64,000 bases of DNA from Nitrospirota bacterium (GTDB taxonomy: Bacteria > Nitrospirota > Thermodesulfovibrionia > Thermodesulfovibrionales > Dissulfurispiraceae): assembly GCA_963710375.1 (NCBI GenBank), contig CAVPZX010000005.1, positions 224,001-288,000 on the forward strand, in the 5' to 3' direction. Made by a program: the position numbers and the translations under genes. Shown here piece after piece: positions 41,823 to 60,918 of this stretch (its first letter is position 1; each line of letters begins with the position of its first letter). The notes under the pieces were generated by a model. That model saw only the letters and a program-made list of their open reading frames with translations, was not told the origin of the DNA and did no database searches.

Positions 41823-43802
41823 ATGAAGATCCTCCTTGTTTTTGACGCCTCTATAAAAGTTGAATTGTCATACAATTTCAACAAGGAATCTGTTATTGAG
41901 GGAATAGACCTCTTCCCTCTTACCGGGAATCCGGCAATAATAGATAAGGTAAAAAATACTCTCTCATCTAATGCATGCCCTGTAGAGTCCCTTAACACTG
42001 CCGATATGGTCGAGAAGCAAATTGATTATCTGAAGGGGAGGATATGCAGATGGTCAGCTGATATTGGTGAATACAGGATCAGGGAGAAAAAAATTAAGGA
42101 GTGGTTTCTCTTAAAAGGCGAGAATGTCAGTACATGGTGGTTTAGCCTGCTTTCTGAAAAGAATACGGGCAAAACAGATGCTTTTTTAAAAATGGCTCAA
42201 GTACATGCCATAGATGATATTTTAAGAAGTAAATGCTATCCCTTATGCGCCATTGCGATTTCAGATAAGGAGTTAAGAAAATCTGTTCTAAATGTTGCCC
42301 ATAAATTCGGGTCAAAAATAAGAATATTGCCGACAATCCCTCCCAAAGCCCTGAAGCTTAAAATGCAAGCTATGTTAAAGCAAATGGGGATAGCAGGTGA
42401 GCTCCTTTTGGGGATTTACATCTGGCTTCGATTTTTAAACAGAAGACATCTGGCCCTTAAGCGGTTAGGGGTTAACTGCAAACGTCTTCCAAGTCCAGAC
42501 TCTCTATTATTGGTAAGCTATTTCCCGGCTGTAGAAAAAAAACCTGCACAGAGGGGAATATTTATAAATAAATATGCTTCTGCTTTGCAAGATAAACTAA
42601 AGGAGCTTAAAATCCCGATAGTATGGGTGCTTATGTACGTTCCAATTGATGGATATAAATATAGTGATGCAGTTAATTTAACTCTTGGCTTCGCTGAGAA
42701 TGGTGAAAAGGCTTTTATAGCAGAAGAATTTTTATCAACAAAAGACGCCATTAGGGGATTATTGCTTTGGCTTAAACAAATGGTCATTAGTTTTTTTTTA
42801 TTGGGTGTTGCAAAAGAACGTTTACTGTCCGGGGTGATTGGACCTGAATGCGAACCTATTATAAAGTCATTATGGAGAGTATCTTTTTGCGGGGTTATTA
42901 ATCTTGAAGCGATACTTTACTATTTTATCTTTAAATCCGGCTTTGATCAAATTCCCGGTATAAAGGATTGTCTGTATTGGTGTGAAATGCATGCATGGGA
43001 AAAAGCCTTAAATGCTGCAAAAAATCAGAAGCATTCTTATATCCGTACGATTGGTTTTCAGCATGCTCACATTTCAAAAAACCATTTCGCCTATTTTTAT
43101 GACCCGTTAGAGTTGCGGGGAGGGCGAGGAGCTGTTGATATGCCGATGCCTGATCTGGTGGCATGCAATGGAGAATATATGTGCTCTATCCTCTCAAAGT
43201 CAGGCTATCCCTGCCTTGCCAGAGTGGAAGCCCTGAGATATCTTTATATGAATAAAATTCTACTATCCGCTCAACGGGCCAAAGGAGAAAATATCCTGTT
43301 AGTAGCAGGCTCTATCATGAAAGATGAATCCGCCACCTTGCTTTCATTTGTTCATAGCGCCTTCCCCAAGGCAAGGGAATTTGGTATATGGTTTAAAGGG
43401 CATCCTCTGTTGCCTTTTGAGCAATTGTTTGAGGAACTCGGAATTGATCTATCCGAAACAGGATATCAAATCAGGCATGATCTTATCTCAGATTTGCTTG
43501 GTGAAGCTAGGACTGTTATAGTTGGTTCAAGCGGGATTGCGATGGAGGCACTAATCTTTGGATGCGAAGTGATTGTTCCAGTCTTCCCGGATTCAATAAA
43601 TATGAATCCACTTGTTGACTTTGAAAAATATTACCATAGAGTAACCTGCATAGAAGATCTTCAATTGGTAATGGAAGAGATCTCAAAAGGTGTTCGACGG
43701 AATGACATTGACGAGACCAGGGGGCTCATTAAGCACTATTGGGAAATGGACGATGCATTGCATAACTGGGAGCGACTTTTATTGTCGAACAAGAAGGACT
43801 GA
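41823..43802 (+). CDS. Hypothetical surface-carbohydrate biosynthesis protein
   Basis: 659-aa ORF (WWFSLLSEKN, EMHAWEKAL, GFQH, VEALRY, KGHP). Its stop codon is the TGA of the first GGACTGA repeat. Confidence 0.65.
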   Translation: MKILLVFDASIKVELSYNFNKESVIEGIDLFPLTGNPAIIDKVKNTLSSNACPVESLNTADMVEKQIDYLKGRICRWSADIGEYRIREKKIKEWFLLKGENVSTWWFSLLSEKNTGKTDAFLKMAQVHAIDDILRSKCYPLCAIAISDKELRKSVLNVAHKFGSKIRILPTIPPKALKLKMQAMLKQMGIAGELLLGIYIWLRFLNRRHLALKRLGVNCKRLPSPDSLLLVSYFPAVEKKPAQRGIFINKYASALQDKLKELKIPIVWVLMYVPIDGYKYSDAVNLTLGFAENGEKAFIAEEFLSTKDAIRGLLLWLKQMVISFFLLGVAKERLLSGVIGPECEPIIKSLWRVSFCGVINLEAILYYFIFKSGFDQIPGIKDCLYWCEMHAWEKALNAAKNQKHSYIRTIGFQHAHISKNHFAYFYDPLELRGGRGAVDMPMPDLVACNGEYMCSILSKSGYPCLARVEALRYLYMNKILLSAQRAKGENILLVAGSIMKDESATLLSFVHSAFPKAREFGIWFKGHPLLPFEQLFEELGIDLSETGYQIRHDLISDLLGEARTVIVGSSGIAMEALIFGCEVIVPVFPDSINMNPLVDFEKYYHRVTCIEDLQLVMEEISKGVRRNDIDETRGLIKHYWEMDDALHNWERLLLSNKKD

Positions 43803-44040
43803 GGACTGAGTGGAACAGCAAGGCAAGGACTGAGAGCAAAAGGAAGGACTGAGGACTGAGTGCAAAGGCAAGGAAAGGACTGAGGGCAAAAGCAAGGACT
43901 GAGGACTGAGTGGAACAGCAAGGAAAGGACTGAGGGCAAAAGGAAGGACTGAGGACTGAGTGGAACGGCAAGGCAAGGACTGAGAGCAAAAGGAAGGACT
44001 GAGGACTGAGGGCAAAGGCAAGGCAAGGACTGAGGGCAGA
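43795..44040 (+). repeat. Tandem array of five ~50-bp units built from GGACTGA heptamers
   Basis: GAGGACTGAG recurs at 43801, 43851, 43901, 43951 and 44001. Each unit holds a double and a single heptamer. Confidence 0.97.
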
Positions 44041-44085
44041 AAAAGGCTTGTTAGTATGCCGCAAAATAAACTATAGTCACAATTG

Positions 44086-44115
44086 TTGACACATTCAGTC
44101 CAGGATGGGTATGCT
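44086..44115 (+). promoter_or_regulatory. Putative sigma70 promoter of the antitoxin gene
   Basis: TTGACA (44086), 18-bp spacer, TATGCT (44110), then AGGAG RBS before ATG 44130. Confidence 0.5.
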
Positions 44116-44129
44116 GATTTCAGGAGAAC

Positions 44130-44399
44130 ATGATGAAGATAGCAACAGTAAAAGAGTTTAGGGACAAGGCAACAGCCTATTTCAAGGATGAAGAACCTGT
44201 CCTTGTTACAAGACATGGAAAGGTGACAGGCCTATACCTGCCGATAGAACATCCGGAGAGCTTTCCTGAAGAACTAAGGAAAGATCTGCTTATCCGTATA
44301 GGGGAATTAGTAAGCCGGTCACTGGAAAGAAAGGTCTTGACCGAGGAAAAGATCCTTGCAGACTTCGACTCCTATAAGAAAGCTCGCCGCAGACGCTAA
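44130..44399 (+). CDS. Phd/YefM-like antitoxin
   Basis: ATVKEFRDKA...EPVLVTRHGK N-terminal DNA-binding pattern, followed by a PIN remnant. Confidence 0.75.
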   Translation: MMKIATVKEFRDKATAYFKDEEPVLVTRHGKVTGLYLPIEHPESFPEELRKDLLIRIGELVSRSLERKVLTEEKILADFDSYKKARRRR

Positions 44400-44536
44400 T
44401 GTAATTCTGTCCGATTGAATTACTCGCTCTTGCCATGAAATTGAATGTCCCTGTCTGGACCAATGACAATGATTTTAAGCATTCCGGTATCGAAGTATTT
44501 ACCACTGCAAGATTATTAAAAGCCCTTAAGTTATAA
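44356..44536 (+). pseudogene. PIN-domain toxin remnant with internal deletion
   Basis: One frame gives KLAADANVILS then a stop at 44416-44418. Another gives LLALAMKLNVPVWTNDNDFKHSGIEVFTTARLLKALKL*. These are the two ends of a PIN domain with the middle absent. Confidence 0.72.
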
Positions 44537-44578
44537 AAAGACAGAGGAATAAAAGACCAGGACCAAGGAATATTCGAA

Positions 44579-45547
44579 TTGAGAAGAGTCTTTATATCTA
44601 CTACGTCTTTCGGCAAGGAAGAGGGCAGTCCACTTGAATTGCTTAGGAATGCAGGGCTGGAGATCCATTTGAACCCGTATGGAAGAAAATTGACCGAAGA
44701 TGAAGCGATGGAGCTTCTATCTGATATGGATTATCTCATAGCAGGCACAGAACCCCTAACTGCCAGGGTGCTGAATTCCGCAAAAAAACTTAAGGTGATT
44801 TCGCGCTGCGGCGTCGGGATGGATAACGTTGATATGGAAGCTGCTTCTCTGTTAGGCATAAAGGTATTCAATACTCCTTATGGCCCCACGCAGTCTGTTG
44901 CCGAACTGACTGTTGGGTTGATGCTTGACTTACTTCGCAGAGTTACGGCCATGGACCGTGACGTGAGGAGAGGGACATGGAAAAAACGTATGGGCAATTT
45001 GCTGAATGGCAAGAGAGTCGGAATCATCGGTTTCGGGAAAATAGGACAAAAAGTTGCGGGGCTGCTCATGCCTTTCGGGGTCGAACTGTCTTATTGCGAT
45101 ATATGCGCCTGCGACTGCTCGCTGCCTGCCTCAGCGATGGCGATGGATGAGCTGCTTCCATGGGCTGACATTGTTACGCTCCACTGTTCCGCTCCTCAAT
45201 CATGTGGGGCTTTAATTAGGGCTGAGGAGTTGTCCAAGATGAAAAAAGGATCGTGGTTGGTGAATGCCTCCAGGGGGGGCTTGATTGATGAACAGGCCTT
45301 GTATAATGCTTTGAAAGATGGACATCTTGCAGGAGCAGCCCTCGATGTTTTTGACAAGGAGCCATACAGCGGACCACTTGCCGGGTTGGACAATGTCATT
45401 CTTACGCCGCATATCGGGTCGTATGCAAAAGAAGGGCGTATCGAAATGGAAATTCAGGCAGCGGAGAACCTCTTAAAAGGACTGAGTGAGAAAACAAGGA
45501 CTGAGGGTAAAACAAGGACTGAGTTAAAAGACAAGGACCAGGACTGA
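44579..45547 (+). CDS. D-isomer-specific 2-hydroxyacid dehydrogenase (phosphoglycerate dehydrogenase-like)
   Basis: SRCGVGMDNVD, GIIGFGKIG, VNASRGG, LDVFDKEP and LTPHIGS. The C-terminal tail is encoded by the repeat. Confidence 0.9.
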   Translation: MRRVFISTTSFGKEEGSPLELLRNAGLEIHLNPYGRKLTEDEAMELLSDMDYLIAGTEPLTARVLNSAKKLKVISRCGVGMDNVDMEAASLLGIKVFNTPYGPTQSVAELTVGLMLDLLRRVTAMDRDVRRGTWKKRMGNLLNGKRVGIIGFGKIGQKVAGLLMPFGVELSYCDICACDCSLPASAMAMDELLPWADIVTLHCSAPQSCGALIRAEELSKMKKGSWLVNASRGGLIDEQALYNALKDGHLAGAALDVFDKEPYSGPLAGLDNVILTPHIGSYAKEGRIEMEIQAAENLLKGLSEKTRTEGKTRTELKDKDQD

Positions 45548-45632
45548 GGACTGAGTGGAAAGGTAAAACAAGGACTGAGTTAAAAGACAAGGACCAGGAC
45601 TGAGGACTGAGTGGAAAGGCAAGGACTGAGGG
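45477..45632 (+). repeat. Forward GGACTGA array upstream of four-helix-bundle gene A
   Basis: Multiple AAGGACTGAG units. A 41-bp block is repeated at 45515-45555 and 45571-45611. Confidence 0.95.
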
Positions 45633-46040
45633 ATGAGTAAAATTGAAAGGTTTGAGGATTTGATTGCCTGGCAGAAGGCAAGGGTTTTGGTAAAAGAAAT
45701 ATACCGGATTACAAAGAACCAGTATTTTTCGAAGGATTTTGCTCTTTCTGGACAGATTCAACGTGCTGCAGTATCTGTTATGTCAAACATAGCAGAGGGT
45801 TTTGAGAGGGGTGGGCGAGCAGAGTTTCACCAATTTTTAGTTATAGCTAAGGCCTCTTGTGCTGAAGTTCGTTCGCTTTTGTATGTCGCTTTAGATATCA
45901 GATATATTACAGAAGATGAATTTAACACATTCAATAATTTAGTCGTGGAGACCGGTAGAATTATTGGAGGCATACGTGTTGCAGTGCAGAAACAAAAAGA
46001 TGGAGCTAAAACAAGGACTGAAGGTAAAGGCAAGGACTGA
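45633..46040 (+). CDS. Four-helix-bundle protein A (23S rRNA IVS protein/Avd-like family)
   Basis: [29 protein letters not shown] and FLVIAKASCAEV family signature. Confidence 0.92.
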   Translation: MSKIERFEDLIAWQKARVLVKEIYRITKNQYFSKDFALSGQIQRAAVSVMSNIAEGFERGGRAEFHQFLVIAKASCAEVRSLLYVALDIRYITEDEFNTFNNLVVETGRIIGGIRVAVQKQKDGAKTRTEGKGKD

Positions 46041-46230
46041 GGGTAAAACAAGGACTGAGGACTGAGGTAAAGGCAAGGACTGAGTGGAACAACAAGGACT
46101 GAGGACTGAGCGAAAAGAGCGAAAGAATCAGGACTGAGTGAAAAGACAAGGACTGAGGACTGAGGTAAAGGCAAGGACTGAGGGTAAAACAAGGACTGAG
46201 GACTGAGTGGAAAGGACTGAGAGACAAGGA
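46008..46230 (+). repeat. Forward GGACTGA array overlapping and following gene A
   Basis: Many CAAGGACTGAG(GACTGAG) units separated by short A/G-rich linkers. Confidence 0.95.
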
Positions 46231-46269
46231 TTACAGCGCATGTTTATTGTTACTTTGACTTTATTCTTG

Positions 46270-46516
46270 TTTTTTAAACTCAGTTCTCAGTCCTGGTCTT
46301 GTCCTTTAACTCAGTCCTATATTTTAAGAGTTTTTACGCTCAGTCCTCAGTCCTGGTCTTGTCTTTTAACTCAGTCCTATTTTTTAAGAGTTTTTAAACT
46401 CAGTTCTCAGTCCTGGTCTTGTCTTTTAACTCAGTCCTATTTTTTAAGAGTTTTTTACTCAGTCCTCAGTCCTCAGTCCTTGTTTTTATTAGTTTTAACT
46501 CAGTCCTTGGTTTTTT
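46270..46516 (-). repeat. Inverted (TCAGTCC) array with 60-bp periodicity
   Basis: CTCAGT(C/T)CTCAGTCCTGGTCTTGTC(C/T)TTTAACTCAGTCCTAT at 46279, 46339 and 46399, plus further heptamers up to the next ATG. Confidence 0.96.
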
Positions 46517-47170
46517 ATGATTAAAGCGACTATATTCGACTTTGACGGCGTGATTCTCGAATCTGCGGGTATCAAAACGAAGGCCTTTGAAAGGCTTTTT
46601 GCCGGTGATTATCCTGATAAGGCAGAAGAAATCCTGGCTTACCATATTCGCAATGCCGGCATATCCAGGTATGTCAAATTCGATTATATATATGAGCATA
46701 TCCTTAAACAACCGCTTATGCCTGAAGAAAAAGAAGAACTTGGGAAGAAATTCTCCGATATAGTATTTGACGAAATCCTGCATACGCCTTTCGTAGCCGG
46801 TGCGGTGGAGCTGTTAGAGGGAAGCAGGAACGACTTGCTGTTCTTCATCGCTTCCGGCACTCCTGAAGAAGAGCTTCACCGCATACTAAGCCTTCGGCGC
46901 ATTGCTCATCTGTTTCGCGAGGCGCACGGTTCGCCTAAAAAAAAGCACGAGATCATACTCGATATAATGCATAGGTACGCGCTGCAGAAAGAGGAAGTTG
47001 TGTTCGTGGGCGATGCCGAAAGTGACATGAAAGCCTCAGAGCAGGCCGGTGTTGCCTTTATTGCACGGATGACTGCCGAGAATCTGGAGCAGATACAGCA
47101 TTGTCGGTGGAAAATCCCGGACCTCTCCGCACTGGAAACCGTTCTGCACGATATCGGGCGACTCAGGTGA
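46517..47170 (+). CDS. HAD-family hydrolase
   Basis: IFDFDGVILES, IASGTP, GSPKKK and FVGDAESD motifs. Confidence 0.9.
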   Translation: MIKATIFDFDGVILESAGIKTKAFERLFAGDYPDKAEEILAYHIRNAGISRYVKFDYIYEHILKQPLMPEEKEELGKKFSDIVFDEILHTPFVAGAVELLEGSRNDLLFFIASGTPEEELHRILSLRRIAHLFREAHGSPKKKHEIILDIMHRYALQKEEVVFVGDAESDMKASEQAGVAFIARMTAENLEQIQHCRWKIPDLSALETVLHDIGRLR

Positions 47171-52150: not shown

Positions 52151-52774
52151 ATGGGAACGTTTTGGAATGTGAGCAGTATAAAAGGGACTACCATAAATTT
52201 TATCGACACTCCTGTCATTGGAACAGCTTCATTTCTGATTCCTCTATATATCTTCCTGTTTGCTATCGCAGCAGTTATGTTCTTGATGATGAGTCGGAAC
52301 CACCTGCAAGTTAAAAGGCATGCAGTTGTGAGAGCTTTGCTTTTGGCCTTTGTCACAGCAGCCGTGTTGTTTGCGGCAAGAATGGATTATGGGTGGTATA
52401 AGATGTGGCAGCTTGACAGTAAGAATCCGCAGGGAAGCCTTGATGAAAGTATTGCTATGGATCTGCGGACAGTAAACTCATTTGTAGAGGCATTCAAGAA
52501 AGCAGTGCCTTTGTCCGAAAAAGTCGCAATTATTACAGACGATTCTTACGACAGGATGGTGCTGAAATACTACCTGCTGCCGATAAGAATTTCGGAGGAT
52601 GCAAATGATATTATTGTTTTCAGCAACAGGCATGTGGTTTTTGATACAGGACGTAATGCGCTTCTCGAAGATGGAAATGTCGTAGAGAATAACGTCAGCC
52701 TTGTTGCATCTTATGAAGGAAAGTTTTTTATATTCAGGAAAAAGGACAAGGACAAAAACAGGACTGAGGACTGA
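52151..52774 (+). CDS. Hypothetical membrane protein
   Basis: Two TM segments and a YYLLP motif. The C-terminus and stop come from the GGACTGA repeat. Confidence 0.65.
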   Translation: MGTFWNVSSIKGTTINFIDTPVIGTASFLIPLYIFLFAIAAVMFLMMSRNHLQVKRHAVVRALLLAFVTAAVLFAARMDYGWYKMWQLDSKNPQGSLDESIAMDLRTVNSFVEAFKKAVPLSEKVAIITDDSYDRMVLKYYLLPIRISEDANDIIVFSNRHVVFDTGRNALLEDGNVVENNVSLVASYEGKFFIFRKKDKDKNRTED

Positions 52775-52818
52775 GTGGGAAGGACTGAGGAATAAAAACG
52801 AGGACTGAGGACTGAGTG
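52742..52818 (+). repeat. Short forward GGACTGA array forming a gene junction
   Basis: Five GGACTGAG units spanning the stop at 52774 and the GTG start at 52816. Confidence 0.93.
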
Positions 52819-54222
52819 AAAATCCTGATGCTTATTTATGCTTTTTTCTTGCCGACCGCGACGGGCTTCCTGTTTGTCAGCTATTTTTCCCGTTGCGATA
52901 ATAAAGAAAGTTTTTTTGAAAGACTATTTTTGGGGTTCGGTCTGGGTATGGGTATGCTCACTTTTGAGATGTTCATTACCGCCCTCTTGAAAATTAATTT
53001 TTCTCTGTTCGTCATATCACTAATGCAAATATTGACTGCGGCTTTATTTGCATGGCTGCTCTTCAGGTCCAAATATTCCCTGAAGGAAGTTCTCAATGTG
53101 TCGCCATTCCGCGATAAAATAACGTCAATTTTTAAAGTGTCCGGAGTGCAGTCTTTTTTCGTTTTGTTAGTAACGATCTGGATTATGCTCAAGTTCTTCT
53201 TTGTTCTTTATGAGAGCGCGACCTGGCCGGCATTCGGATGGGACAGCCTGGAAAATTGGAGTTCAGGGGCCAAATATTTCTATTACGTGAAAGGCTTGAT
53301 GCTCGATCATGGAAGCGAGCACTTTTTCGGCAAAGGATACAGGACCTTTTTGAATTATCCCCTGCATATACCATTAATGCAGGTTTGGGTTTCAGTATGT
53401 CTTGGAAACATCAATGAAGCATATATGAAATACTGGAACGTGGTTTATTTCATCAGCGTTGTCGCTTTGGTTTATTTTGCAGTGAGAAGAGAAGCTTCTC
53501 AGGTTATCGCCATCCTGGCAGCTTTTTTCCTTTCCTCAGTGCCGCTGCTTACATACCATGCAATCGATGCGTATGCGGATTTGCCTCTGAGTTATTACGC
53601 GCTCGCCACCGCCATTTGCTTTCGGAGATACATGGAAAAGTCTGAGAAACAAAGAGATGAAAATTATGGATTCCTGGTCCTCATTGGGGTATTTTCAGCT
53701 TTATGCATGTGGACGAAATTAGAAGGCATTCTGTTCGCTCTCGCTTTCAGTGCGACCCTGTTACTGTATCTTCTGCTGAAAAGGAGTTCATACAGGAATT
53801 TTATAAAAAGCCTTTTTTTCTATTCTTTACCGATTGGCATAATAGGAATATCGTGGTTCACTTTTTTGACTTTAAACGGTGTAAAAGGCCGCAGTATACT
53901 CGCCTTTGGTCTTCATTTTGAGGTTATTCCTGTGATCCTGAAACAGATATTTTTCTCGGCAAATTTTAATATTATTTTCCTGTTTTCCCCGCTAATTATT
54001 CTATTGGGCATCAGAACAATTTTGCATTCTGACTTAAAATATCTGCTTGCCCACCTATTAATGGTGATGTTGATGTTCCTTTTCATTTATATCGCAACGA
54101 ATAATTATATATTTGCAATGAATTTGACAGCGGTAAATCGCAGCGTACTGACTTTTATCCCCGCGATGTATTATATTAGCGCCCTGATAGCAGCACATAT
54201 GCTGGGAAAAGAAAAGGACTGA
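52816..54222 (+). CDS. Polytopic membrane glycosyltransferase-like protein (GT-C/ArnT-like)
   Basis: Many TM helices with GWDSLENW, NYPL, YADLPL and WTKLEG motifs. Confidence 0.65.
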   Translation: MKILMLIYAFFLPTATGFLFVSYFSRCDNKESFFERLFLGFGLGMGMLTFEMFITALLKINFSLFVISLMQILTAALFAWLLFRSKYSLKEVLNVSPFRDKITSIFKVSGVQSFFVLLVTIWIMLKFFFVLYESATWPAFGWDSLENWSSGAKYFYYVKGLMLDHGSEHFFGKGYRTFLNYPLHIPLMQVWVSVCLGNINEAYMKYWNVVYFISVVALVYFAVRREASQVIAILAAFFLSSVPLLTYHAIDAYADLPLSYYALATAICFRRYMEKSEKQRDENYGFLVLIGVFSALCMWTKLEGILFALAFSATLLLYLLLKRSSYRNFIKSLFFYSLPIGIIGISWFTFLTLNGVKGRSILAFGLHFEVIPVILKQIFFSANFNIIFLFSPLIILLGIRTILHSDLKYLLAHLLMVMLMFLFIYIATNNYIFAMNLTAVNRSVLTFIPAMYYISALIAAHMLGKEKD

Positions 54223-54400
54223 GAAGGAAAGGCAAGGACTGAGCAAGAGACAAAGGGACTGAGGACTGAGAAGGAAAGGCAAGGACTGAGGACTGAGCAA
54301 AAAAGACAAGGACTGAGGACTGAGTGAGTAAAATTGAAAGGTTTGAAGATTTGATTGCGTGGCAAAAATCAAGACTTTTGGTAAACCTATGAGGACTGAG
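54214..54400 (+). repeat. Forward GGACTGA array flanking a truncated four-helix gene
   Basis: AAGGACTGAG units at 54214-54324 and one more at ~54391-54400. Confidence 0.94.
54324..54392 (+). pseudogene. 5' remnant of a four-helix-bundle gene (copy of gene A)
   Basis: GTG frame translates to [22 protein letters not shown], against [22 protein letters not shown] at 45633. Confidence 0.9.
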
Positions 54401-54418
54401 AGGAAAGAAGACGTCAAA

Positions 54419-55204
54419 ATGACTCAGTCCTCAGCACTCGGCCCTCAGTCCTTGTCTCTCAGTCCTCAATCCTCGGCCCTCAGCCCTTGTTTTAAGAAGT
54501 TGTCCATTGTAATGCCTGTTTATAATGAAGGCACCTACGTCCATCAAATACTGAATAAGATTAAGCAGGTTACACTTGACAATGAGATCGAAAAAGAAAT
54601 CATTATCGTCAATGACGCCTCAACTGACGACACTGCGGACGCAATTAAGGCATATATCAATAACAACCCCGAACTCAATATCCGGTATTTTAAACATGAA
54701 ACGAACCAGGGAAAAGGCGCGGCATTGCATACCGGGATAAAGGAAGCAACCGGTGATTTTTTGATAATACAGGATGCTGATCTGGAATACGATCCTTTTG
54801 AGTACAATAAGCTGTTGGAGCCTGTTTTAAAAGGTCATGCCGATGTAGTATATGGCTCACGTTTTATCGGCGGACACCCTCACAGAATTCTTTTTTTCTG
54901 GCATACGGTGGGTAACAGATTTCTTACATTTCTTTCGAATGCGTTTAATAATCTTAACCTTACCGATATGGAAACCTGCTATAAGCTCTTTAAGACCGAC
55001 ATTATCAAAAAGATCGAGTTAAAGGAAAAGCGCTTTGGTTTTGAGCCGGAAGTTACGGCTAAGATAGCGAAGATACCGGGCATCAGAATTTACGAGGTTG
55101 GAATATCTTATTACGGAAGGACTTATGCTGAAGGCAAAAAGATCAACTGGAAAGACGGGCTGAAAGCGCTTCATTGCATTTTTAAATATGGTTTGTGGCC
55201 ATAA
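54419..55204 (+). CDS. GT2 polyprenol-phosphate glycosyltransferase (DPM1-like)
   Basis: [39 protein letters not shown] and FGFEPE. The start is uncertain and the N-terminal extension is repeat-derived. Confidence 0.88.
54421..54490 (-). repeat. Degenerate inverted (CTCAGTC) heptamer array
   Basis: ctcagtc-ctcagca-ctcggcc-ctcagtc-cttgtct-ctcagtc-ctcaatc-ctcggcc-ctcagcc in exact 7-nt phase. Confidence 0.9.
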
Positions 55205-57023: not shown

Positions 57024-57401
57024 GTGAAATTCAGGTTTCAGGATTTAGAGATATGGCGAATGGCAATAGAGATTGCTAATGAGCTTTTTGATATTGCTGA
57101 CAAACTTGAGGCAAAACGGTTATATCGTTTTGCTGAACAATTGCGCGGTGCAGGGATGAGTATGTCTAACAATATTGCTGAAGGTTCAGGGAGCGGCTCA
57201 AAGACTGAATTTAGGAATTTCTTGAATATAGCAAAGCGCAGCACTTTTGAAAATGTAAATATTATGATTCTCCTGAACATGAGGAGGCTGATAGATGATA
57301 ATATGCTGGAGAAGATGCTTGAACGACTTGATATGCTTTGTCGTAAGATAACAAACTTTCAGAAAACATTGATCGCAAAGAGCAAAGGGCAAAGTGCATA
57401 G
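57024..57401 (+). CDS. Four-helix-bundle protein B (23S rRNA IVS protein/Avd-like family)
   Basis: FQDLEIW, EQLRGAGMSMSNNIAEGSG and FLNIAKRSTFE. The last codons and TAG stop are repeat-derived (57375-57401). Confidence 0.92.
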   Translation: MKFRFQDLEIWRMAIEIANELFDIADKLEAKRLYRFAEQLRGAGMSMSNNIAEGSGSGSKTEFRNFLNIAKRSTFENVNIMILLNMRRLIDDNMLEKMLERLDMLCRKITNFQKTLIAKSKGQSA

Positions 57402-60150: not shown

Positions 60151-60188
60151 TTGACAGCGAGTGACATTTGTGTACATAATAAAGTCAC
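60151..60188 (+). promoter_or_regulatory. Putative TA promoter with overlapping operator
   Basis: TTGACA (60151) and CATAAT (60175). The inverted pair GTGAC (60161)/GTCAC (60184) surrounds the palindrome TGTACA. Confidence 0.55.
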
Positions 60189-60205
60189 AGATGGAGGATA
60201 AAGCT

Positions 60206-60493
60206 ATGAAATTTTTAAGTGTTCGGGATTTGAGAAGCAAGTCGGCGCAAGTCTGGAAAGAACTTCCCGGAGAAAGAGAGATGGTTGTCACCAGCAACGG
60301 ACGTCCTGTAGCCATCCTTGCAGCAATAACGGAGGAAAATCTTGAAGAATCCCTTGTGGCATTCCGTCAGGCGCGCGCGGTTGAAGCAGTAGCTTTTCTT
60401 CAACGCCGTTCCGTCGAACAGAGGACAGACGGAATTTCAATGAAAGAGATCAATGCAGAGATAAAAGCCGTCCGTAAAAAACGCACACGATGA
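60206..60493 (+). CDS. Phd/YefM-family antitoxin
   Basis: LSVRDLRSKS...MVVTSNGRPVAIL. GGAGG RBS and ATGA overlap with the PIN gene. Confidence 0.88.
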   Translation: MKFLSVRDLRSKSAQVWKELPGEREMVVTSNGRPVAILAAITEENLEESLVAFRQARAVEAVAFLQRRSVEQRTDGISMKEINAEIKAVRKKRTR

Positions 60494-60918
60494 ACGTTGT
60501 GATTGATACTAATGTTATTGTTGCGGGTCTTTTATCTCCGTTTGGGACTTGCGGCGAAATCGTGCGCATGATTTCATCCGGAGAGTTGATGCTTTGCTTT
60601 GATGCCCGCATCCTTTCTCAATATAATGAAGTCCTGCTCCGTCCGAAGTTTAAGTTTGAGGAAACAAAGGTTGCTGCCCTTCTTGACTATATTGTCCATA
60701 GTGGACGGACAGTAGCATCTTCACCTTTAACAAGTTCACTGCCCGATGCTGATGACGAGCCGTTTCTCGAAATTGCGATTGCAGGCCGGGCTGTATGTAT
60801 CGTTACCGGTAATCAAAACCATTTCCCGTCGAAACTGTGTCAGGGGATTAAGGTATTTTCTCCAGTGGAGTTTATAAATTTTTATAAAAAACAAAAAAGA
60901 CGCACTCCTGGGCGCTGA
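60490..60918 (+). CDS. PIN-domain toxin (VapC-like)
   Basis: VVIDTNVIVAG, PDADDEPFLE and IVTGN motifs. Confidence 0.9.
   Translation: MNVVIDTNVIVAGLLSPFGTCGEIVRMISSGELMLCFDARILSQYNEVLLRPKFKFEETKVAALLDYIVHSGRTVASSPLTSSLPDADDEPFLEIAIAGRAVCIVTGNQNHFPSKLCQGIKVFSPVEFINFYKKQKRRTPGR

Follow-up and report, generated by a model that had tools for sequence, protein, structure and literature searches.

Introduction

The closest described counterparts of the locus analyzed here are the ORF-bearing intervening sequences (IVS) of 23S rRNA, found in helix-45 of Coxiella burnetii and in Leptospira, in which an S23p/PF05635 protein is encoded on the sense strand within the loop of terminal inverted repeats (PMC4990558). 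In Coxiella, a 28-bp stem closes the IVS, GACAGAT heptamers in numbers that vary between strains precede the S23p ORF, and RNase III cleaves the IVS in vitro (PMC4990558). A related four-helix fold is found in Avd of the diversity-generating retroelements (DGR; PF22296, NF033474; PDB 4DWL), which the available portions of two reports describe as a pentameric, positively charged barrel that binds the DGR RNA (10.1101/2023.10.23.563531; PMC10053308). Bacterial heptamer repeats are described as well: the available portions of the respective papers report GGGAATC heptamers of Xanthomonas in convergent inverted pairs, with 70 cases in X. campestris (PMC4692102), and start-proximal TAACTGA heptamers in Beggiatoaceae (PMC4679880). 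In a full-text literature search that covered few subscription journals, cassettes of the kind presented below were described inside 23S rRNA only. MITEs and REP elements are intergenic insertions with inverted ends. To our knowledge, PF05635 proteins have no assigned function and the bacterial heptamer repeats no assigned source.

Organization of the cassette and comparison with known systems

We analyzed a stretch of 64,000 nucleotides from a Nitrospirota bacterium of the Dissulfurispiraceae (assembly GCA_963710375.1, contig CAVPZX010000005.1, positions 224,001 to 288,000), hereafter the window, in whose numbering coordinates are given. It contains a long, co-directional surface-polysaccharide locus, with 63 of the 66 picked ORFs on the + strand, and in this locus lies a cassette with the following features.

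44579-45547, + strand: upstream host gene, D-2-hydroxyacid dehydrogenase (SerA-like; Pfam PF02826/PF00389)
45467-45478, + strand: left-junction host codons Asn-Leu-Leu-Lys, which include the 9-mer 45470-45478
45477-46516: whole cassette, 1040 nt (forward arm, gene, second forward arm, spacer, inverted arm)
45477-45632, + strand: upstream (left) arm, 9 copies of GGACTGA separated by purine-rich linkers
45515-45555, + strand: 41-nt segment, copy one
45571-45611, + strand: 41-nt segment, copy two
45633-46040, + strand: gene for a four-helix-bundle protein of 135 aa (TIGR02436, PF05635), its final codons entering the inner arm
46009-46222, + strand: inner forward arm, 14 GGACTGA copies, a competitor for the distal arm
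46223-46270, no strand: short spacer, the predicted loop of a local inner/distal hairpin
46271-46516, - strand: distal (right) arm, 11 inverted heptamer copies
46271-46335, 46331-46395 and 46391-46455, - strand: three 60-nt units of the distal arm
46339-46378, - strand: best inverted copy of the 41-nt segment
46517-47170, + strand: downstream host gene, HAD-family hydrolase (PF13419)

The last ~17 codons and the stop of the SerA-like gene lie inside the upstream arm, and its orthologues end 17 residues earlier, while the HAD gene starts 10 nt past the last inverted heptamer. The upstream arm contains a perfect 56-nt tandem duplication (45506-45561 and 45562-45617). The inner forward arm, between the gene and the distal arm, is a third arm that an earlier note on this DNA had omitted. 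Stop codons occur in all three frames within both forward arms. An Rfam scan of the window returned no RNA family, only two chance MIR408 matches (E 0.7) and no Gut-1, and promoter and terminator counts were at shuffle level.

As in the ORF-bearing 23S rRNA IVS, a sense-strand PF05635 gene lies here between complementary termini that are predicted to be able to form a stem, and as in Coxiella, heptamer direct repeats precede the start codon. In contrast, the cassette lies between two protein genes, outside rRNA, and is therefore by definition not a 23S IVS; compared with the Coxiella element described in the accessible parts of PMC4990558, it measures 1040 rather than 428 nt and has three arms of 9-14 copies of another word. 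It shares with the Xanthomonas and Beggiatoaceae repeats, as the available portions of those papers present them, 7-nt units, convergent pairs, a position before the start codon and stops in three frames; it differs from them by its long matched linkers, and no tie to four-helix genes appears in the available portions of PMC4692102 and PMC4679880, the latter giving 0 matches to terms for such genes. Inverted ends and an intergenic position are also shared with MITE and REP elements, unlike which the cassette has ends that vary between copies and carries a gene; no target duplication of 12 nt or more was seen.

The four-helix-bundle protein

The earlier note had placed the encoded protein in the 23S-IVS family, and the profile matches agreed, with a TIGR02436 score of 111 bits, above the curated cut-off of 24, and a PF05635 match at E 4e-36. 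The curators of TIGR02436 reportedly remark that the rRNA location is not conserved. The nearest solved structure was PDB 2GSC (E 3e-12; five chains). Unlike DGR Avd, with which it shares a related fold, the protein fell below the cut-offs of both Avd models (27.8 vs 80 bits and 29.4 vs 40 bits), and the genome, 98.8% complete, had no match to the PF00078 reverse transcriptase. The sole Avd-like gene among the relatives, at locus L365 (G002:C5:355-3663), lacks the heptamer arms of the cassette; a repeated template-like stretch lies on both its sides, and this locus is DGR-like by eye. Homologues of the cassette protein at 54-68% identity came from many phyla, and none at E 1e-30 was found in the nine congeners. 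A second four-helix-bundle gene of the window, at 57024-57401, belongs to a distant clade and has its own GCATAGG/GCAAAGG inverted arms, with flanks reaching to ~57500. Another small gene pair, with a PIN_3 gene, lies at 60161-60915 inside the polysaccharide locus.

Insertion between two operon genes

Matches to the HAD gene were found in 8 of 41 genomes, its own included, and the three best non-self loci were compared. In the congener G009, the serA-HAD spacer is 47 nt long and holds no cassette, the HAD orthologue (77% identical) following directly after serA; in the congener G007, serA and HAD overlap by 8 nt, again with no cassette; the third genome, G016, has a different gene order at serA/HAD. 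The empty sites that the earlier note had proposed to look for in relatives thus exist, and since two congeners keep the flanking genes adjacent, the 1-kb unit is an insertion at the junction of two operon genes. In the frame where G007 serA ends, the HAD start of the window still encodes Asp followed by a stop, which suggests an overlapping stop/start junction as the insertion target. A metagenome search with the HAD protein yielded 6 distant loci, which were uninformative.

The tandem word occurs in 46 copies in this genome, versus 1-4 copies in 5 of 67 family members, and two further elements of the window carry it:

43796-44570, + strand: neighbouring insertion with the same word, a forward array of 15 copies and one inverted copy
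54216-54465, + strand: decayed sister element, the same arms around a 62-nt gene stub (54324-54385)

The neighbouring insertion carries a Phd-like antitoxin gene (44130-44399) followed by a 5'-truncated PIN gene (44405-44536); its site is 13 nt in G009, with two heptamer-like words that are either seed or relic. The stub of the sister element is identical to the four-helix-bundle gene at 54 of 62 bases. An array of five forward copies also lies at 52761-52815, across a stop codon and the GTG start that follows it, with neither gene nor inverted arm.

An insertion bounded by inverted arms, with known empty sites, and the same word in a decayed sister element and with toxin-antitoxin cargo are what one would expect of a non-autonomous transposon whose arms serve as terminal inverted repeats for a transposase encoded elsewhere. 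Yet the linkers differ between elements (17 arms compared), arm length ranges from 3 to 16 copies, and no transposase was detected among the 63 window ORFs scanned. In addition, no direct repeat of at least 12 nt links the two flanks, the empty sites being too diverged to reveal a short one. We consider a transposon of this kind improbable. Of the earlier proposal that the arms are element termini, the part that survives is that they bound the insertion; they are not conserved between elements.

The arms had also been proposed as inversion substrates, forming an invertible switch in which arm-to-arm recombination flips the gene. The inverted matches of 21 and 20 nt, in a surface-polysaccharide locus, would suit such a switch, but no recombinase was found among the same 63 ORFs and the two four-helix genes of the window share the strand of the operon. 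The contigs of 8 DNA runs showed no empty allele and no strand-changing joint, a weak test given that rare forms drop out of contigs; two short-sided or unresolved joints likely come from other arrays. Inversion is unsupported, and we regard it as very improbable.

The inverted match between the arms

Identical 41-mers occupy 45515-45555 and 45571-45611 in the upstream arm, and the reverse complement of 46339-46378 equals this 41-mer minus one G, exactly as first noticed. Variants of the segment occur in the distal arm at 46279-46318, with two further substitutions, and at 46399-46438, with one, each within a 60-nt unit. Perfect inverted identity extends over 21 nt at most. The match also exceeds shared 7-mers, as had been claimed: the 15-nt linker GAGTTAAAAGACAAG is confined to the cassette arms, with exactly 4 sites in the 3.19-Mb genome, two in the upstream arm and two, inverted, in the distal arm. 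When the 41-mer was scored against other arms, it reached 37 with the distal arm, 26 with its own inner arm and at most 19 with any of the genome's 14 further AGGACTG arms. A score of 37 was attained by none of 5000 random arms built from the other 108 linkers of the genome (maximum 32) and by none of 5000 linker-shuffled arms (maximum 27). Left and distal arms are the reciprocal best pair among the 17 arms of the genome (60, with 44 and 28 next). A search for the 15-nt linker across genome contigs returned isolated, scattered matches, an estimated ~1900 against ~1100 by a rough chance estimate.

Public-run contigs span 46271-46395 without difference (2 of 4 runs, among the 32 pieces listed), and the 56-nt upstream duplication stands at about double depth in the contigs of run X1. 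Because these contigs reproduce the distal segment and the doubled upstream depth, the arm match is not an assembly artefact. At position 45230, all five deeper runs covering the site have C where the window has T.

Inverted arms across the protein clade

Among 79 related loci, 76 had enough flank for comparison and 3 were dropped. These 76 were picked by likeness to the query protein and so form a single clade by design; the telling point is that the word crosses phyla together with the protein. A flank score of at least 14 was reached by 69 of the 76 loci in inverted orientation and by 5 in direct orientation, with medians of 22 and 8. The inverted flank score of the window, 60, is above those of all 76 loci (highest 54), but was obtained over a longer downstream stretch. 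The same 7-mer was present at least twice in both arms in inverted orientation in 65 of 76 loci, and in direct orientation in 4. Overall, members of this protein clade are as a rule flanked by inverted heptamer arms.

The four letters TGAG are contained in 53 of the 65 arm words, and TGAG-type arms flank 58 of 76 clade members, compared with 5 of the 38 paralogues outside the clade. The other clades use words of their own, 6, 7 or 8 nt in length, including within this single genome. Inside the clade the word switches often (AGGACTG, AGTGCTG and others): along the tree the TGAG label changes 14 times, a count with no shuffle control. Across at least ten phyla, the word of the repeats goes with the clade of the protein. 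Neighbours were co-directional in 66 of 68 and 65 of 70 loci, an uncontrolled count that carries no evidential weight, and four short 23S motifs were absent from the 76 loci, which is a weak test.

Cognate arms were then compared in loci thinned at 80% protein identity, which kept 19 of 24 loci in one word class and 15 of 18 in a second. Cognate arms shared 2.63 non-periodic 12-mers, versus 1.04 between arms from different loci that use the same word (p 0.001, 19 loci), and in the second word class 4.07 versus 0.79 (0 of 20000 permutations, 15 loci). A cognate arm that strictly outranked every other candidate was seen in just 4 of the 19 loci of the first class and 4 of the 15 of the second. 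The window reached 22 shared 12-mers, other loci at most 13. Since cognate arms lie above chance but are seldom strictly best, the linker match of the window is an extreme case of a real but uneven trend, and its arms are the best-matched pair seen.

Heptamer arrays also occur apart from this clade. This genome holds more than 80 tandem-heptamer clusters of ~20 words (AATAGTG, AATAGGC, AATTAGG and others), versus six full four-helix genes. At G000:C5:211826-217732, AGGACTG hairpins and in-frame arrays lie in three paralogous long minus-strand ORFs. The arms of the gene-less hairpins of this genome match paralogous copies best, not their own partner. In G016, at locus L224 (G016:C1:1237000-1245000), in-frame AGGACTG arrays sit in the serA orthologue, at two places, and in the HAD orthologue, adding Ser/Pro/Gln/Leu-rich loops; despite these arrays, the cassette's protein clade is absent among the 7 family matches of this complete genome.

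Polymerase slippage has been proposed for heptamer excess (Mrazek 2007, cited in the available portions of PMC4679880), and host polymerase errors alone might grow and mirror the heptamer arrays, with the gene merely riding along. Gene-less arrays in this genome, which are common, and arrays in G016 in the absence of this clade would fit such neutral growth. It is at odds with a word that tracks the protein clade over ten or more phyla and with paralogues that differ in word within one genome, and we give this explanation only a slim chance.

Predicted RNA fold

The earlier note had further proposed that the transcript can form a long stem whose loop holds the gene. In silico, this structure was indeed predicted: the fold of 45440-46540 had a minimum energy of -417.8 kcal/mol (a raw value, with no shuffle z-score), with ~102 expected base pairs between the left and distal arms and, nested, ~104 between the inner and distal arms. 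Helices of 21, 20, 23 and 17 bp were predicted, the 21- and 20-bp helices falling in the upstream/distal stem, and opening the left arm by force would cost 66 kcal/mol. The second 41-mer was predicted to pair with 46398-46438 rather than 46339-46378, and the start regions of the four-helix-bundle and HAD genes were both predicted to be paired. The predicted duplex of the 41-mer was of -74.5 kcal/mol with the distal arm versus -58.4 kcal/mol with the inner arm.

If pairing in RNA were under selection, arm mismatches should favour sense-strand G-U. We examined this in 72 of 83 thinned loci (101 before thinning), using gapped repeat alignments, which are noisy. The mismatches were strand-symmetric, 76 of the G-U type versus 88 of the A-C type (p 0.39). 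The base composition of the window element itself leans towards G-U pairing: its distal arm is rich in T and poor in C, with C at 0.22 against G at 0.35 in the upstream arm.

These results bear on the reading of the cassette as an mRNA intervening sequence, in which a transcript stem keeps the arms complementary and RNase III frees the gene RNA and splits the operon message. Such processing would agree with the stem energetics given above, with the presence of an RNase III gene in the genome, with the parallel of the Coxiella IVS (28-bp stem, heptamers before an ORF of the same kind, in vitro cleavage; PMC4990558, accessible parts) and with the cognate arm matching, which fits selection too. 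Against it stand the lack of sense-strand G-U bias over the 72 loci, the inner arm as the nearer partner for the distal arm, and host-flank bases in the distal arm, described below, which point to copying. The same arrays moreover lie in frame inside serA and HAD of G016 and the long ORFs of this genome, which fits badly with obligatory cutting because cutting would destroy the message. We therefore hold RNA-level upkeep of the arms to be possible but rather unlikely.

Origin of the arm match

The host 9-mer at 45470-45478 recurs inverted in each distal 60-nt unit, at 46322, 46382 and 46442, 4 nt from a heptamer. Just four places in the whole genome have this 9-mer within 8 nt of a heptamer, namely the left junction and each of the three distal units. 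Its bases are the host's, because orthologues keep Asn-Leu-Leu-x-Gly at this position. Any 9-mer of the 30-nt flank was found in the distal arm in 200 of 20000 shuffles (p ~0.01, post hoc). The simplest reading, hinted at by this one event spotted post hoc, is that the distal arm was probably templated from the left end after insertion. Host-flank capture gave no signal over 49 other loci (mean 4.0 vs 3.95), and we dropped it as a general rule.

The arms grew by tandem duplication, of 56-nt and 60-nt units. As to the match itself, the absence of G-U bias and the host bases in the distal arm lead us to rank DNA-level copying first and stems selected through RNase III second, and the two can coexist. 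We place about even confidence in the view that the exact match arose by in-place DNA-level copying of the arms within the inserted cassette, and not by upkeep through RNA processing. In this mechanism, the arms would fold back on each other via the heptamers when the region is single-stranded, and a polymerase would switch template at the 7-nt matches and rewrite one arm from the other, here apparently carrying along 9 bases of the host gene; slippage would then multiply the arm units. Predicted to form a pentamer as in 2GSC and Avd, the protein may bind single-stranded nucleic acid at its own word and thereby favour the growth and relocation of arms; this would account for gene and word travelling together and for the presence of gene-less arrays in the same region. 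The forward arms, with stops in all frames and GAGG before the next start, would allow the operon to tolerate the insert. The long RNA stem would be a predicted by-product, which may be cut. Points against DNA-level copying include the gene-less hairpins, whose arms are not the best match of their own partner, and the G016 arrays, which occur without this clade.

Discussion

Taken together, the cassette class is widespread and unexplained, and the window locus is a clear and testable case of it. The locus ties PF05635 proteins to heptamer repeats within a single genome, through one intact gene, one word and 17 arms. It is testable through its decayed sister copy, the empty sites of the congeners and an arm-unique linker that can be mutated apart from the heptamers, and this mutability of the linker would separate DNA-level copying from selection on an RNA stem. 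The locus could also tell whether there is a general insertion cassette of which the rRNA intervening sequences are one special form.

More broadly, four-helix-bundle genes might be widespread mobile elements that lack a transposase, each clade with its own 7-nt word, whose inverted arms are built at the target by template-switch copying. We put this forward tentatively and think it somewhat doubtful. If it is true, the host bases in the right arm would be copying caught in the act, and a single source would account for heptamer repeats in bacteria, for rRNA intervening sequences that carry an ORF and for the retroelement subunit Avd.
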